A stretch of DNA of 64,000 bases, taken from assembly GCA_964016885.1 (NCBI GenBank), contig OZ024741.1, positions 335,668,001-335,732,000 of the forward strand, given 5' to 3'. Shown one piece after another: positions 8,695-63,569 of this stretch (positions within the stretch are counted from its first letter, which is position 1; the number at the start of each line of letters is the position of its first letter). Source of the DNA: Eledone cirrhosa (lineage: Eukaryota). Made by a program: the position numbers and the translations under genes. The notes below the pieces were generated by a model. It was not told where the DNA came from and did not search any database. It was given only the letters and a program-made list of their open reading frames with translations.

Positions 8695-8697
<3 letters not shown>
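8212..8697 (+). mobile_element. 5'-truncated RTE-clade LINE 3' fragment
   Basis: Close match to 34934-35418 (ALEVDG.RGVGRPK.TW). (GAT)n tail; lies between (TA)n tracts. Confidence 0.85.
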
Positions 8698-8755
<58 letters not shown>

Positions 8756-8759
8756 TTTC

Positions 8760-8802
<43 letters not shown>

Positions 8803-8809
<7 letters not shown>

Positions 8810-11800
8810 TGCCCCCTCGTTATCGAGTATGGCCATTGCACGAGAAAAAAAAAAATAAATAAATAAATAAATAAATAAATTAAAAAAAAAAGAAATATAT
8901 ATATATATATACATATACATACACATATACACACACACACACACACCCACACACATATACACACACACATACATTAATAACAATAATAATAATAATAATA
9001 ATAACGACAACAACAATAATAATATACATATACATATATATATACACACACACGCACACACATAAGCGTATCTACACACACACACACACACGATAGCAAC
9101 TAACAGCGCTGCGATCGAATGTGGCTTTTTAGCCCAGCCAATGATCTAAAATGTCTTGCACAGAGTCGGCAACCAAAACATTCACTGGGAATGGTCGGCT
9201 GTGGTTGGAGTTCGTGTACTTTTGCATGTCGCTTGAGCCCTCCTGCTGATTTACATTCTCTACCACATGTTTGGCAAGCATGATGAGTAGCATCTCCAAC
9301 AGCAGCCTGGTAGTCAACCACTGGTCTTACTTTATGACTGCGAAGATGACTTTTAGTCCAGCTTTGCTTAGGCAGAGTCTCGCACATACGCTGCATGTCA
9401 GCATCATAGGAGGACCCTCGCCGTCTGGAAGTGCAACAGCAATGCCCTTCCTCGCATCCCGCTTTACTTTCTCGTATGCGATTCGAGATGCCTCAAAGGC
9501 AACTTTTCCCTCATATACAGTCTTTCTCCATTTATTGCGATCAGCAGCAATATTCTCCCGTGTATCAGCAGAGATGTTAGCGTCTTTCAGAGAGGATTTC
9601 AAGGAATCCTTATACCTCTTTTTTGGTTTATGTGGCGGTCGTTTTCCTTTAACCAACTCTCCATAAAAGAGTTGTTTTGGTATTCTAGAATCCTTCATCC
9701 TGGCAAGGTGACCACTCCAACGGAGTCGTTGCTTAAGCACAAGAGCTTCTATACTGTCACACATAGAGCTTTCCAAAATCTCGACATCACTGATGTGGTC
9801 CCTCCAGTGAACGCCATGGATCCGTCTGAGACACATCTGATGGAAACGCTCCAATTGCTTAAGGTGGTGTTGATATGTGACCCAGGTCTCGCAGGCATAA
9901 AGAAGACAAGAGAGCACACATGCCCTGTACACCTTTACCTTTGTCCTCCTGCATATGTCTCGCCGACCCCAGAGTCGCCTTTCTAGCTTTCCGAAAGCAT
10001 CACTTGCTTTCCTAATCCTAAGTGAGATTTCACTGTCAAGGTTGCTGTATCGATTGACAGTGCTTCCCAGGTAGACAAACTGATCAACCACTCCAAGTCG
10101 TTTGCCATACACATAGATGTTTGGTTCAGTGTACTGCTTACTAGGGGCAGGTTGGTACATGACGACGGTTTTCTTGAGACTGACAGTCAGACCTAGGGCA
10201 GTGCAAGCGTCAGAAAATGCATTCAAAATGTGCTGCATATCACTCTCTGTGTGCGCTACAAGATCGCAATCATCTGCATACAAGAGGTCTCTTATGATTG
10301 ATGTAAACACTTTTGTCTTCGCAGCAAAGCGCCTGATGTTAAATATGCTGCCTGAGGTTCGATATCGGATGTAAACACCATGCTCGCAATTCCTGAATGC
10401 AATACAGAAAACCATTGCAAAGTATATGGCAAACAGGGTCGGTGCTGGAATATCCCCCTGCTTCACTCCATTTTTTATTGAGATAGGCTCCGACATGTTA
10501 CCCGTTACCCCCGACATTAACCAAAGCCTTCATGTCGTCATGGAAAGACCTAACTAAAACAAGGAACTTATCAGGGCAACCAAGTTTCTGGAGAACCTTC
10601 CATAATGCATCTCTGTTAACAGTATCAAAAGCTTTTGTCAGATCGACAAAAACCTGATACAGATCCAAGCCTTGTTCCATGCACTTCTCCTGGAGCTGTC
10701 TAGCTGAGAAGATCATATCAGTAGTGCCGCGTCCAGCACGAAAACCAGATTGACTTTCAGGAAGAACACAATCTGCAATGTGTGTCAGCAGACGGTCCAG
10801 AAGCATCCTACATAAAACTTTCCCTACGACAGAAAGCAATGATATACCTCTGTAGTTCCCACAATCGTTCCTGTTACCCTTTCCCTTGTACAAGACCACC
10901 ATTACTGCATCTCTCCAGTCCTCAGGTACGGATTCATAAGCCCATATCCTGCCAAACAAAGAGTGAAGATGTTGCAGGAGTCTCTCACCACCATATTGTA
11001 GGAGCTCAGCATGTATGCCATCCATACCTGGAGATCTTCCACTGTTCAGCTTCGAAATAGCCACTGCAACCTCCACAAGCGTCGGAGGTTCTGCGAGAGC
11101 TACTTTCACAGGACTTTCTGGAACGAGATTGAAGAAATCTTCACTGACGACAGACGGCTGATTCAAAAGATCATCAAAGTGCTCTCGCCACCTTCGTAGA
11201 ATTCCTTGTGAGTCACGAAGAAGTTCTTTGCCATCCTTGCTGCGAAGCGGTGTCACCAGAGAAGAAGACGGTCCATAAACCTCACGCAAGAGACTGTACA
11301 ACAGCTTTGTGTTATTGGAATCAGACGCAGTTTGTATCTCACCAGCCTTCTCACTCCACCACTGATCCTTCATCTGAGAAAGACTCCGCCTAACACGTGA
11401 TTTTACATCCCTGAGTTCCTCATGCAACGTATTCCTCTCCTGTGGTTTTGCCGTCAAGTAGCGTGACAGAGCACGCCTCTTATCAGCCAACAAGTCTTCT
11501 ATATGTACATCATTCTCATTAAACCAGTCCTGATGTCTCCTCTGCGCCAATCCCAGAACACGCCTGCCTACATCATAAACCGACTTTTTAAGGGTCGGCC
11601 AATCCTCACCAAGATCTGCAGCCTGCATCTCTTCTTCCAATGTCTTCTTCACATTTTTATCCTTAAGACGAGCAGCATTCAATCTTTTGGGCAGGGCAAC
11701 ACCAGGAGCCCGGATTTTACGTTTAGTGATTAGTTTCATTTTTGCGCGTACCAGGCGGTGGTCCGTCCAACACTCAGCTCCACGAAGAACACGAACACAC

Positions 11801-12684
11801 TGCACATCCTGTCTGTCACGCATCCTGACTAGGACGTAGTCCAAAAGATGCCATTCCGTAGATGCAGGATGCATCCATGAGGTCTTGAATTTGTTCTTTT
11901 GTTGGAACATGGTGTTGGTAACACACAGATCCAGCTCCTCACACATCTGCAGCAGGAGCATACCATTGCTGTTACACTTTCCCACCCCATGCCTTCCGAT
12001 TACATTCCATGTGTTAAAATCTCTACCCACTCTAGCATTAAAGTCACCAAGCACGATGACTTTGTCTGCCTGAGGGATATTTCTTAAAACACCTTTCAAG
12101 GCATGGTAAAAGGACATCTTTTCCTCATCGACAGAACTCATAGTTAGAGCATACACACTCACTAGGGTAGCATATCTTCCCTTGTCCAGCGGAACTCTCA
12201 TGGACATAAGACGCTCACTAATCCCTACTGGGAATTCTTCTAATTTGTTCACAAGCACAGTCTTAACAGCAAATCCTACCCCAGCCTCTCTTCTGGCTCC
12301 TTCATCTCTTCCTTTCCAGAAGAATGTATATTCTCCACAAAATTCCGTAAGATGACCATCTCCAGCTAGCCTCGTCTCAGATAAAGCCACGATGTCAAGA
12401 TCGTAACGTCGAAGCTCCTTTGCAACAAGAGCGGTCCTTCGTTCAGGACGCCCCAAGGAATCCCTGTCAAGCAGCGTCCGTACGTTCCAGCAGCCAAGAC
12501 TAAATGCCTTGTTTGGCTCTATTACAATGGCACGATGACGAGCGGGCCCAGGCTGTGATAACCTGGAGCCCCTGCCCTTATTGCCAATGATCTTTTTTGT
12601 TCCAGAACCTAAATTGCCAATTATCTCTTTTATATTGTTCTGGAGCATCATTGAATTTGAAAAAAAAAAAAAAAAAAAGTAATA

Positions 12685-12715
<31 letters not shown>

Positions 12716-13021
12716 TAGTACACTATTAATAATTATTAATGCACTCGTGCAATGCCTGTGCGTGACGAATATTTTTAAAGTGAGGAAAGACTGTGCACTG
12801 AGCCAATCCCACTCTCTGAGCGACAGTAGCTATAACCCGAAAAGAAGAAAAGATCAACATCATCGGTAACTACTGAGCCGCAGGTTTTATGTCGGAGTTA
12901 ACCAGTTTCCTGAGATGCCTTCTCCTAGAAGAATGCCCTGACAAGGGCTAGGGGTTCTTCACTCGCAGTGGTTTAACTGCGCAATCGGGCATCCAGCCCG
13001 ATTATTTCTATGTCCCCGCGC
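8803..13021 (-). mobile_element. Near full-length RTE-clade LINE
   Basis: 5'UTR with CTAGGAGAAGG motif, then EN-RT-zinc finger coding region. 3' end GGCCATACTCGATAACGAGGGGGCAGCCATC runs into (AT)n. Confidence 0.92.
9100..12649 (-). pseudogene. RTE ORF: APE endonuclease + reverse transcriptase + three C2H2 fingers, with two frameshifts
   Basis: Motifs WNVRTL, SETRL, GDFNARVG, TDHRLV, NYRGISLLS, QSGFR, DLTKAFD, GVKQG, LLYADD, LRWSGH. Frameshifts: 7-bp GTTACCC duplication at 10497-10510 and a 1-nt loss in the homopolymer at 9351-9354. Confidence 0.92.
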
Positions 13022-13298
13022 AAAAAAAAAAAAAAAAAAAAAGTACGTATAAGTGTCAATAAGTGATATATATATATATCACTTATTGACACTTATAGGT
13101 ACTTTTTTTTTTTTTTTTTTTTTGCGCGGGGACATAGAAATAATCGGGCTGGATGCCCGATCGCGCAGTTAAACCACTGCGAGTGAAGAACCCCTAGCCC
13201 TTGTCAGAGAGTTAGAGAGAGAGGGGTAGATGGTGGTGTAAAGAGAGATGGCGGTGTGTATGTATGTATATATATATATGTGTGTGTATGTATATGTG

Positions 13299-13340
<42 letters not shown>

Positions 13341-13431
13341 TATACATACACACACATATATATATATATACATACATACACACCGCCATCTCTCTTTACA
13401 CCACCATCTACCCCTTTCTCTCTAACTCTCT
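12938..13431. repeat. Two abutting palindromes, each centred on (TA)n
   Basis: 12938-13207 and 13206-13431 are each self-complementary with a few substitutions. They share AG at the junction. Confidence 0.9.
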
Positions 13432-14140
13432 TTATATTTTCACTTCTCTCTCTCTCCCTCCCTCTCTCTCCCTCTCTCTCTCTCTCTAATGTCTTCATCA
13501 TTGTAATAAGATTAGTCAGTGTTCCATGTTGCTGTTGGTGCTGGTAGTGTTGGTGATGATTGTCATGTTGATAGTGTTGCTGGTGTAGATTGTGTTGTTG
13601 GTGGTCACAGTGGGGTGGTGATGGTGTTGGTGGTGTTGGTGTTGGTAGTGTTGGTGGTGATGGTCATGTTGATAGTGTTGCTGGTGTAGATTGTGTTGTT
13701 GGTGGTCACAGTGGGGTGGTGATGGTGTTGGTGGTGTTGGTGTTGGTAGTGTTGGTGGTGATGGTCGTGTTTGTGATGATGTTGATGCTGGTGTTGGTGA
13801 TGTTAATGATGTTGTTATTATAGATGTAGGAAATCCATTGTATGCTAGATGTCATAGAATAGAAGTACATCAGATGGTAGCATTATAGATAATCAGGCTA
13901 GGAGATAATTATTGTTCAATATTGTTAGTAAGTTTTAAGTTTCAAGATTTCTAAACTGAAAATGTGTGAAGTGGTTAGAGTTGATAAACCTATAATCAGG
14001 GCAACTTATATTATATACACAAAGACTAGTGGAGCAGTGCTGTCAATAATGATGGCAATAGCATTGAGTATATATAGGTTTTGGAGTCCAGGATTGGTAT
14101 GTCAAATATCCAGGATTATTGCATATATATATATATATAT

Positions 14141-15046
14141 ATATTGTTATACTTTGGGAGGGTCATGTTGCCAATAAGAAACACACGCACCAGTTGCTTT
14201 CACTTCAATTTATTATATATTTATAAATTTATAAATTTACAAATCTACAAACTTATAAATTTCTGGTTGGTTGGTTCCACAACCAGATAGTTGTTTATAT
14301 ATATAGTCATACCAACATGCTAAGATAGAACACAGGGGTAGATTAGAGAGCATAGAAATAAAAATAGAATCCACGCACAGAAAAGACGCAATGTTTAGGC
14401 AAATTACAGAGGCAGTAAGCATAAAAGAATTAAAACCAAAATTAAATAGAAAATACGAGTGGAACAGCAACATCACAACTTACAATTAAGGACAAAATGA
14501 AAACACACACACACATAGAACAAACAACTTACAATTGAAAACACACACAAAATGAAAACACACACAGGAGAAAATGAAAACACACACACACATAGAACAA
14601 ACAACCAACCAACAATAAATAAATAAATAAATAAACAAATAGAAAAATGAACACAAACACACACAGACACCCGGATGTGGCACATGCGCAAACTGAGCAC
14701 ACAACACACACACAGAAACAAAATGGCGTAGGATAGAAGAAAGAAAAGGCACAGAAACGAAGAGAAGAAAGGAATCCCCAGTCACTGAAGAGGTCACAGA
14801 GTGTGTGACGAAAGGACTATGACTATATATATAAACAACTATCTGGTTGTGGAACCAACCAACCAACCAGAAATTTATAAGTTTGTAGATTTGTAAATTT
14901 ATAAATTTATAAATATATAATAAATTGAAGTGAAAGCAACTGGTGCGTGTGTTTCTTATTGGCAACATGACCCTCCCAAAGTATAACAATATCGGTTTCA
15001 ACACACGATTTCAGATAAAGAATCTTGCTAAACAAATTCAGAAACG

Positions 15047-19458: not shown

Positions 19459-19857
19459 TAAAAGTTCTATTGAAATTGTTGGGATACAGCAAGCAAATAT
19501 TTTTATAACTGATATAAAGCACTCAACAAATATTTGGAGTAAAAATACGATATTAACAAATGGAAACTATATTTATAAAACCATATTTATTTCATTATAC
19601 ATATTTCAAGGACACCAAGTTAAATTATGGTGTGCTTTCATCAGACAAAATATAATATAGATCAGTTTTATAAATAAATATTGACATACCCTTAAAAAAT
19701 GCAACCATTACTGTTGGAAGCTCCCGGATAGTATTTATTTATAAAACTGATCTATATTATATTTTGTCTGATGAAAGCACACCATAATTTAACTTGGTGT
19801 CCTTGAAATATGTATAATGAAATAAATATGGTTTTATAAATATAGTTTCCATTTGTT
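19457..19857 (-). mobile_element. Fold-back Penelope/retrozyme-like element, family A, second copy
   Basis: 126-bp inverted arms at 19555-19680 and 19732-19857 with a 51-bp spacer. (TA)n on both sides. Confidence 0.8.
19760..19824 (+). ncRNA. Type I minimal hammerhead ribozyme with intact core; mirrored on the minus strand in the left arm
   Basis: TATTTTGT-CTGATGA-AAGCACACCA(loop)TGGTGTCCTT-GAAA-T ATGT A TA-ATGAAATA. Predicted cut after A19816. Confidence 0.72.
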
Positions 19858-20066
19858 TATATATATATATATATATATATATACATACATACATACATAC
19901 ATACAGATATATATATATATATAGGAAGGGCATTCAGCTGTAGAAAACCCGCCAGATAGTCCTATGCGAGCAAGACAATCACTCTTGCCTCAAGTGGGAA
20001 AACGCCCGTCCAAACCCATGCAAGCGTGGAACACGGACGTTAAACGTTGATGATGATGATGATGAT

Positions 20067-25089: not shown

Positions 25090-25094
<5 letters not shown>

Positions 25095-25280
25095 AATGAG
25101 TAGGACCCCCACGGCTGAGCTCGAGCCGTGTCGACGGCTAATTCAGAATTAGCCGTCGAAACGGCTTGAGCTCAGCCGTCGGGGTCCTACTCATTCCTAT
25201 TACCCACTCTACTACCCTAAGTATTGAGTACTTTGGTGCATTATGGTCCATCTGGTTCCTTACCAGATTTCCTTCGTTAT
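25090..25280 (+). mobile_element. Fold-back element, family C, with the 3' part of a hammerhead
   Basis: 55-bp arms around A25145. GAA-ACGGCT(loop)AGCCGT-C then GGGGTCC gives stem III plus a GUC site. Tail to 25280; (TA)n on both sides. Confidence 0.8.
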
Positions 25281-34544: not shown

Positions 34545-35418
34545 GACCGAATTAGCAGCGGAGGTGGCTGTTCAGAAAGTACAATAACTAGGGTAAGAAT
34601 GGGATGGAAGAAGTTCAGGGAGCTACTGCCACTGCTAGCTGCAAAAGGCTTTTCCCTCAAAATGAAAGGCAGACTGTATGATGCGTGTATACGAACAGCA
34701 ATGTTACATGGTAGTGAAACCTGGGCGCTGTCTGTAGAAGACTTGTGCAGATTAGAAAGAAACGAAGCTTGCAAGCTCCGATGGATATGTAATAGTAATA
34801 TATGCAAACGGCAAAGCATAAATGAATTGAGAGAGAGACTGAGCATAAAACAAATCAAATGGTGTGTGCAGGAGAGGAAGTTGAGTTGGTATGGACATGT
34901 GATGCGTATGAAAGATGTCAGCTGCATAAAAAGGTGCAGAGCACTAGAAGTCGATGGAAGCCGCGGAGTGGGGAGACCCAAGAAGACCTGGGATGAGGTG
35001 ATAAAAGCCAACCTTACCCAATTGCACCTCTCAAGGGCAATGACACACGACCGTGACCTCTGGCGTCATGCAGTAATACAAAGATCCGACATCCCACGCG
35101 AACAAGCCGAAGCTGAAGCATATAGACAATGTGTCCCCCCTCCCCCTCCCACTGCAAAGTGGTCGTGGAGGAGCCACGGCAAAAAAGCACCCAGCCCACA
35201 CTGTAAAGTGGACGTGTAGGCGCCACAGAAAAAAAGGCACTCACTGTAAATGAGGTTGGTGTTAGGAAGGGCATCCAGCTGTAGAAATCAAGCCAGAATC
35301 AGTTTCTGTATGAGCAAGACAAGGTCAGCCGACTGGACACTGCCCACAACAGGACAACCCGTCTAGCCCATGCTAGCGTGGAAGAACGGACGTAAAACGG
35401 TAATGATGATGAGGATGA
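34545..35418 (+). mobile_element. 5'-truncated RTE-clade LINE
   Basis: RVRMGWKKFREL...LHGSETW...LSWYGHVMRM...GRPKKTW. 3'UTR shared with SINE A. Confidence 0.9.
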
Positions 35419-35521
35419 TATATCAGTGGTATATATCATCATCATCATCATTATCATCATTGGCAGATGGACGTTAAATGATGATGATGATGATGATGAT
35501 GATATATACCACTGATATCTC

Positions 35522-35598: not shown

Positions 35599-35801
35599 AG
35601 TAATAATAATAAATTAGAAGACTAAAATCCAAAGAGAGCTCGATAAGGATGAACCGTAGAGGAAATATTTATTAAAATAACAGATTAAAGTTTAAGCAAA
35701 GGATCACTGCTTTCACCCTTAACGGGATCTTCAGAAGATCCCGTTAAGGGTGACAGCAGCGATTCTTTGCTTAAACTTTAATCTATTATTTTAATAAATA
35801 T
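35599..35801 (-). mobile_element. Fold-back element, family D, with hammerhead core
   Basis: 68-bp arms around A35733. Minus strand CTGAAGA-TCCCGTTAAGGGT-GAAA. (TA)n on both sides. Confidence 0.75.
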
Positions 35802-41330: not shown

Positions 41331-41509
41331 TGCTAGCTATTTGTTTCACTCTTTAATCATTCTCCTAATATCATGTTCTTTTAGTTTTTGCTTTTTATTC
41401 AGAATAGACTCACCGTGACCTTTCACACACTAAGGGTGCATTTTAGTGTGTCACCAACACACAAACACACACACACACACACACACACATATATTATATA
41501 TATATATAC

Positions 41510-41728
41510 TTCGTTTTTTAATTTGTTTTGCAAGATTTCTTATCTGAAAACGTGTGTTGAAACCGATATTGTTATAGTTTGGGAGGGTCATGCTGCCAAT
41601 AAAAACACATGCACCTTTTGGTTTTCCTTCAATTTATGATAAATTTCAATTTATTTATAAATTGAAGTGAAAACCATCAGGAGTGTGTGTTTTATTGGCA
41701 GCATGACCCTCCCAAAACATAACTATAT
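41510..41728 (-). mobile_element. Fold-back element, family B, short copy
   Basis: Homologous to the reverse complement of 14920-15049. Diverged ~70-bp inverted arms; TA flanks. Confidence 0.75.
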
Positions 41729-45316: not shown

Positions 45317-45451
45317 ATAATGAAGGAAATGTGGTAAGGAACCAGGTGGACCATAACGCACCAAAGTACTCAATACTTGGGGTAGTAGAGTGGGTAATAG
45401 GAACCAGTAAGACCCCGGGGGTCTTACTGGTTCCTATTACCCACTCTACTA
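45317..45451 (-). mobile_element. Fold-back element, family C, second copy
   Basis: Perfect 34-bp arms at 45383-45416 and 45418-45451. Tail is homologous to the reverse complement of 25181-25280. Confidence 0.8.
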
Positions 45452-62740: not shown

Positions 62741-63569
62741 ATGTTATTTGTCGATGTAACTAAATTGAAATTTTCTGTTTGTAATATTTCTTAATATTAA
62801 CTTTTAACACGCATATTTCTCTGTTAAATAAAACAAACTTATCTACTTGGTATTTGTTAATGGTACTGAGGGTTTACTGTGGCAGAGATATTATTTCTTG
62901 AAATGTAGAGACACATGCACAAATTTACACATACACCTACATACACACACAGCACATAGATGAAATATAACTGCCTACACACACACCAACTCATTGACAT
63001 ACACACACATGCTGTCAGATACAAACATACACTGACACACACACATAGATATACAATGCACCTACATACACACAACACATACATGAAATAAAAATGCCCC
63101 CCCCCCACACACACACACACCAACACACCCATACACCTACATATACACACACAGCACATATATACTTCTCAGTTAGAAAGTAATTTTCCCTTTGTTATTG
63201 ACTTATTCTTTAAATCTTATTTGTAAATCAAAGTTTACATGTAACTATTATATGTGTGTTTGCATGTATGTGTGTATATGCACACATCCACACACACACA
63301 AAAAAATATATATGTGCATACACATACATATACATATATATACATAATATATACATATATATGTGTATGTATATATTATGTATATGACATCTCCTCTGTG
63401 AAGTTCAGTATTTTGAGATCAGCTCTCACCACCTCTATCTAGGTTTTACTTGGTTGTCTTCTACTACAGATTCCTGTATGTATATATTATATTATGTGTG
63501 TATATAATATATATATTTATGTGTATATATATATATATATAATGTATATATGTATGTGTATATATATAT

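Follow-up and report, generated by a model that had tools for sequence, protein, structure and literature searches.

A two-sided, TA-centred double palindrome at the 5′ junction of an RTE-like LINE in Eledone cirrhosa, a possible scar of fold-back repair

The window, that is the whole stretch of 64,000 nucleotides analysed here (Eledone cirrhosa, GenBank assembly GCA_964016885.1, contig OZ024741.1, positions 335,668,001 to 335,732,000 of the forward strand), carries on its minus strand, at 8805–13066, a young non-LTR retrotransposon copy of RTE-like type, recognised by its Pfam domains (RVT_1 and Exo_endo_phos), its open reading frames and its 3′ motif. Of the features used to recognise RTE elements, an APE endonuclease together with a reverse transcriptase (RT) and a 3′ end in short tandem repeats are seen, the coding region here being split over two frames (10498–12732 and 9327–10529); judging by its protein motifs, the element would presumably belong to the RTE clade. 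By its repeats, the genome looks octopus-like. The 3′ end, at about 8805, abuts an interrupted (TA)n tract (8697–8803) that is likely the other half of a TA target site, and as TA tracts stand on both flanks of the LINE, a target-site duplication cannot be read there. A 29-nt motif at this end is matched exactly at 1,958 places in the genome, and the copy itself carries 33 private substitutions in 3,861 sites (0.85%). The 3′ ends of family copies are flanked by TA/TATG microsatellites, which agrees with the link between RTE 3′ microsatellites and target choice described in the excerpted text of PMC6007223.

At the 5′ end of this copy lie two adjoining palindromes, found where the first-pass annotation had placed a double palindrome (12938–13431). 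The left one consists of two arms of 135 nt each (12938–13072 and 13073–13207), complementary at 133 of 135 positions, with mismatches at 12983/13162 and 13047/13098. The right one has two arms of 113 nt each (13206–13318 and 13319–13431) that differ, in a gapped alignment, by two substitutions (13221/13416 and 13300/13335) and one 2-nt TA indel, these differences being counted over the ~100 nt that flank the central alternating AT run of 26 nt (13305–13330). Read from left to right, the stretch begins with arm A, which is composed of a segment of the LINE 5′ UTR that we call Y (12938–13021, minus strand), a 21-nt A/T homopolymer run of the same UTR, placed by the family alignment (13022–13042, minus strand), and a 24-nt segment X that is inverted with respect to the family order (13043–13066, plus strand). 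The left centre, (TA)6, follows at 13067–13078, and after it comes A′ (13079–13207, plus strand), new DNA in which X, the homopolymer and Y recur in inverted form. The next segment, B′ (13206–13304, plus strand), is likewise new DNA and is the inverted copy of the right flank; beyond the right centre stands B itself (13331–13431, plus strand), the original genomic flank, with a compound microsatellite and ~55 nt of unique sequence that continues rightwards. B is single-copy, the genome search returning B and B′ only. TA runs stand at the turn of both palindromes with no spacer, the present centres being 12–14 and 26 nt long.

The added DNA, ~230 bp, is composed of inverted copies of both local flanks that abut directly, with no flanking sequence lost on the LINE side, and the arrangement proposed earlier, in which each flank of A-(TA)n-B has gained an inverted copy, matches this structure exactly. 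The dinucleotide AG at 13206–13207 is common to both inner arms in the arm alignment, and this overlap of 2 nt puts the A′/B′ joint in the 0–5 nt class of microhomology. The AG joint was part of the earlier proposal as well, and the overlap is indeed present, but AG alone is weak proof of microhomology joining, since an overlap of at least 2 nt is expected by chance at ~16% of random joints and the observed one is not above that expectation.

In a centre-by-centre palindrome scan, the two palindromes obtained the two highest scores of the window, and their joint folding energy is −281 kcal/mol (z = −46 against 100 dinucleotide shuffles). An Rfam scan of 12500–13500 returned 69 matches, none at the gathering score, and called no ribozyme; the matches are mostly miRNA-type hairpin models that fall on the palindromes, and no function is evident for the scar. 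Other palindromic sequences occur in the window. An inverted repeat at 14141–14311 and 14818–14992 (97.7% over 175 nt, with a spacer of 507 nt) begins at a TA tract and has a related sequence at 41489–41728, possibly as the inverted ends of a mobile element; the palindromes at 1210–1535 and 19550–19862 (94% and 89%) belong to one dispersed family, also present at the surveyed loci L144 and L172; and the short palindromes at 25090–25200, 35417–35521, 35665–35801 and 45383–45451, without TA centres, are probably element ends.

The 5′ end of the window copy is itself unusual. In the 18 other copies displayed, the order in the sense of the element is upstream sequence, X (24 nt), T-run and Y, with X shorter in two of the 18, while in the window copy X is inverted relative to the T-run and Y, a joint that occurs once in the genome. 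The joint between the TA repeat and inverted X has a single other genomic occurrence, at locus L022 (G000:C1:239087477-239090498), where it is followed by ~500 nt of inverted upstream sequence and then by the element in sense orientation, with the same outer breakpoint as in the window copy; judged from its order of segments, this layout would be that of twin priming. Inverted 5′ segments that begin at a microsatellite (TA or TATG, L022 included) were also found at L006, L105 and L155, the last two being among the 100 sampled LINE loci; the inverted part at L155 measures ~4.7 kb, and an inverted block 5 kb away at L078 was treated as a separate copy. The inversion of X is likely of the twin-priming type, and the locus probably originated in a twin-primed insertion into a (TA)n target. 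The TA tract would be the target of the LINE, and as the initial step of the proposed history, its upstream end would have paired with the RNA immediately ahead of the U-run, and the 24 nt copied from there would have led to B-(TA)n-X(inverted)-T(n)-Y-rest. Two other explanations were rejected: a 5′ palindrome encoded by the family is excluded by the family order in the other copies and by the single genomic occurrence of the inverted joint, and a simple snap-back of the cDNA at the self-complementary end of X would give two X copies in the order opposite to that observed. The statement of the first-pass annotation that arm A includes the 5′ terminus of the LINE is valid for the boundary of this copy, but other copies show the 5′ end of the family to lie upstream of it by more than 1 kb. 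Among the family copies L002–L020, the sequence shared upstream of the T-run exceeds 1 kb, includes a SINE-like piece and microsatellites, and varies in its start; L019 represents a sister subfamily with a different upstream part and an identical start of Y.

Both A arms share a variant (12965/13180) that was absent from all sampled family copies (0/45), and a 29-mer containing it has two matches in the genome, both of them the A arms, with no third. This shared private variant indicates that A′ was copied in place from this LINE copy and that the event is consequently no older than the LINE insertion, in agreement with what had been claimed from the first reading; in addition, since A′ holds the inverted X, it was made after the twin-primed joint existed. 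The simplest origin of the private variant is a change in the resident copy that preceded the duplication. Each A arm also carries one change of its own (12983 in arm A, a CpG-type transition, and 13098 in A′), the family base being kept at the matching site of the other arm. The arm-specific divergence amounts to four substitutions in ~418 arm-bases, or ~1%, against 0.85% for the LINE, so that on these counts the duplication would be about as old as the insertion. Under a Poisson model, the duplication is most likely placed at ~65–80% of the insertion age, and the relative likelihood of a duplication at the time of insertion is 0, 0.29 or 0.75, depending on the pre-existing or RT-made variation that is allowed. 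Because the ages of the arms and of the insertion are similar, timing does not separate a later break from an event coupled to integration, and conversion between the arms could blur it further.

The recurrence of such structures was surveyed in 80 evenly spaced 10-kb loci (0.8 Mb) and in 100 LINE-centred 10-kb loci, two of them overlapping, by searching for microsatellite clusters with flanks that are inverted copies; the low-complexity site at 63559–63568 of the window was left out of the counts. In the evenly spaced set, hits were obtained at 8 of 805 TA clusters and 2 of 295 A/T clusters, and at none of the CA/TG (0/494), TC/GA (0/194) or TAA (0/93) clusters. The corresponding values in the LINE-centred set were 3/816 for TA, 1/375 for A/T, 1/268 for TAA, 0/602 for CA/TG and 0/183 for TC/GA. 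The control hits of the survey are L080, L101, L180 and L199, and a mirror-repeat control gave 3/805 hits (all in L210) and 1/816, respectively. Four TA hits were excluded as family-type palindromes, either because both arms belong to a dispersed palindromic family (L144 and L172) or because they represent two element ends at family-level divergence (L152 and L185). TA-centred fold-backs, for abutting pairs of which the first-pass annotation had proposed a genome-wide search, do recur: after this exclusion, one-sided cases remain at 6 of 803 TA clusters of the evenly spaced sample, against 0 of 688 CA/TG and TC/GA clusters (Fisher p = 0.034), and with both surveys pooled, the same comparison gives p = 0.001 before and p = 0.016 after exclusion. 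All six cases of the evenly spaced set are one-sided and none is double; extrapolated from 6 in 0.8 Mb, a 3-Gb genome would hold ~8,000–49,000 one-sided TA-centred fold-backs.

One-sided TA-centred palindromes lie at L167:8620-8706, L181:8880-9237, L200:1676-1739, L208:2639-2868 and L215:3356-3481, and the copied arm of several among them stops at another TA run; given the hits of the mirror-repeat control, L200, L215 and L167, the shortest of all, could include chance matches of low complexity. In paralogues, the un-duplicated state is clear for L215 and L129 and ambiguous for L181 and L200. The structure at L129 (L129:3652-4040) lies at a TA tract embedded in a repeat; its first arm pair measures 130 nt and the next one, in simple sequence, only ~35–40 nt. 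It is located 200–300 bp from an RTE junction and has its plain state in the paralogues L096 and L151; judging by these arms, it is a probable, though weak, second double fold-back. At L209 (L209:588-813), a fold-back with 95-nt arms (99%, 1/95 bases different) stands where a truncated LINE from a different family, presumably R4/Dong-like by its motifs, has its TA-flanked 5′ end. This LINE copy is 91–94% identical (6–9% distant) to the best 39 of 1,333 candidate matches, and from these distances the fold-back would be younger than its LINE insertion (P ~0.01), unless its arms were homogenised. In the family of the window LINE, an inverted duplication at the 5′ junction was found in none of the 65 usable copies among 100 sampled, a weak test given that 35 were unusable and that microsatellite matches blur several of the called positions; at three loci, inverted repeats that are small or of element type lie at some distance from the junction. 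Among the family copies searched, Y is inverted within 150 nt at the window locus only.

The type of mechanism to which the scar points resembles repair errors known from other systems. Yeast breaks acquire fold-back insertions of 2 to ~150 bp, joined through 0–5 nt of microhomology with a median of 2, and, as the excerpted text of PMC11724301 presents them, they are alike in being hairpin-primed copies of break-adjacent DNA that are unwound and joined at such microhomologies. In that account, only one end folds, most copies stay below 14 bp and an inverted microhomology present by chance acts as primer, whereas in the window scar both ends fold, the arms are ~129 and 99 nt long and the primer is a TA tract. 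In Drosophila, snap-back SD-MMEJ starts same-strand synthesis from inverted primer repeats and then anneals at a new microhomology, and either side of the break can serve. The products are short and, unlike the window scar, no abutting pair of 100-nt palindromes appears in the excerpted description (PMC5728401). Inverted duplications at the ends of L1-induced breaks, one of them primed by a 2-bp TA/AT hairpin, are alike in standing beside a LINE insertion; as far as the excerpt of that report extends, they concern the target-side end in human cells and tumours, while in the window, presumably in a germ-line allele, the duplication extends to the element side as well (10.1101/2024.12.14.628481). 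Snap-back of R2 cDNA is documented in part of PMC11371274. According to the excerpted text of PMC4245944, 5′ inversions in human cells arise almost only with L1, with one Nimb-2 exception and with RTE elements outside the test; the likeness is in an inverted 5′ segment that starts at the target end with few paired bases, as here in the window copy and at L006, L022, L105 and L155. The window copy differs by its RTE-like element, its microsatellite primer and an inversion of only 24 nt. (TA)n tracts are described as break sites in part of PMC12972899, and the excerpt of PMC13645644 adds cruciform cleavage and MMEJ repair that leaves small duplications, somatically and on ecDNA; two-sided inverted copies like those of the window scar are not described in that excerpt. 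Within the literature searched, which comprised titles and abstract openings, with most subscription papers and supplements outside it, we found no abutting pair of TA-centred palindromes and no RTE element with twin priming. The term "double palindrome" was absent from the related text searched, and the supplements of 10.1101/2024.12.14.628481 may hold such cases. By analogy, the scar would work like a known repair error; a two-sided example in which arms of 100 nt sit on a twin-primed, RTE-like junction was absent from the literature so searched.

Taken with the structure itself, these observations suggest that the locus most likely records two events, the insertion of the LINE by twin priming and then a likely later break inside the tract, and we assign a probability of roughly 0.55 to a later break in the TA tract with snap-back synthesis on both ends and end joining. 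After such a break, each TA-terminated 3′ end would form a hairpin and prime synthesis on its own strand, over ~129 nt into the LINE and ~99 nt into B; the new 3′ tails would then unwind, meet at the 2-nt AG/CT overlap and be filled in and ligated. The tract may have been cut by a cruciform-resolving nuclease, by a retroelement endonuclease or nick, or through fork collapse, with the same product; the cruciform cut suggested in the first-pass annotation would yield hairpin ends from which such synthesis could start. In favour of a later break, TA-centred fold-backs occur independently of the LINE family of the window, in 0.8 Mb of random loci, and the fold-back at L209, which would postdate its LINE insertion, and the probable second double at L129 point the same way. 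Against it, a double fold-back that hits a young twin-primed junction by chance is a coincidence, and the closeness of the arm divergence to that of the LINE would also count against it, as would the lack of any double case in the evenly spaced set; neither an empty nor an intermediate allele was seen.

An origin coupled to integration is the serious rival, because the TA tract is probably the LINE target and the adjoining LINE end carries an inversion of twin-priming type. Both snap-backs could have taken place in one step during integration, at a twin-primed, unligated 5′ junction recut or slipped in the TA stretch, the cDNA side copying ~129 nt of its own single strand, the target side folding back over ~99 nt and the two being joined; we regard this as a tentative minority explanation. 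It has parallels in the L1 target-side inverted duplications primed by TA/AT (10.1101/2024.12.14.628481) and in the snap-back of R2 cDNA (PMC11371274). The scar coincides with the 5′ junction of a young copy, a junction already abnormal through inversion, and an arm divergence of ~1% fits the 0.85% of the insertion age, but the shared private variant would then have to come from misincorporation by the RT, from a lost source copy that already carried it or from later conversion between the arms, with no third match in the genome. The 0/65 usable 5′ junctions with an inverted duplication, the restriction of the inverted UTR segment Y within 150 nt to the window locus, and the L209 fold-back, which would postdate its LINE, likewise speak against it. 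The fuller proposal that the whole structure is a single frozen integration, in which the TA target served three times, as first primer, as the second (twin) primer on the RNA and finally as self-priming hairpins on both unjoined ends, we consider doubtful.

Replication template switching without a break, in which a nascent strand folds in the TA tract, copies A′, jumps through AG to the opposite B strand, copies B′ and returns in TA, would give the same final sequence, with self-complementary TA offering homology for two of the three switches, and in three one-sided cases of the survey the return joint, by eye, shares ~1–3 nt with the TA tract. We find this pathway rather unlikely, as it needs three switches, the middle one on 2 nt, and as two independent end extensions would explain the unrelated arm lengths more simply. 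That fold-back chimeric reads produced the structure as an assembly or library artefact is very improbable. In the coverage check, which used contigs from 4 of 23 sequencing runs, those with a small share of words being left aside, 13009–13136 and 13249–13560 are masked as repeats, so that the joint is unspanned and contig cover stops short of the whole, mostly masked structure, and X18, one of the three runs made from a single sample, has no cover at B′. Yet contigs of the two other runs cover 13212–13248 at depths of 10.5 (X16) and 15.3 (X17), as inferred from bins, and at the B′-specific base 13221 their bins list no other letter, the sample possibly being the assembly's own; the assembly contig also runs on normally on both sides. 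As the first-pass annotation had argued, the arm substitutions themselves speak against an artefact, given that each A arm retains the family base where the other has changed and that one change is a CpG-type transition. Least probable of all is the insertion into the TA tract of a palindromic mobile element, a MITE or a Penelope-type inverted end. Palindromic elements are common enough, as 1 Mb of loci contained 64 inverted repeats with nearly abutting arms and 4 of 11 TA-centred survey hits were of family type, but the added DNA is wholly copied from the two local flanks, B is single-copy, A′ carries the private variant of the LINE copy, and no second A′B′ joint was found among 41 scored matches, so the palindromic unit is not dispersed. 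Inverted flanks are known at hAT excision footprints; such a footprint was set aside here, since nothing points to an excised element.

Engineered breaks and tumours have already yielded fold-back insertions, mostly one-sided and short. The window locus offers a clean two-sided case with arms of ~100–130 bases, in which private variants reveal the order of events. A minor additional finding is that an RTE-like family has 5′ inversions primed by TA. If the single-integration reading were true, the locus would be a case of twin priming outside L1 together with a two-sided snap-back at a LINE 5′ junction, and microsatellite-targeting retroelements would directly feed the estimated many thousands of TA-centred palindromes. 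If the extrapolation holds, the genome of this organism would be a natural record of how TA tracts break and rejoin in the germ line, in which arm lengths, the ratio of one-sided to two-sided cases, the dependence on tract length and the age relative to neighbouring retroelements could all be tested.
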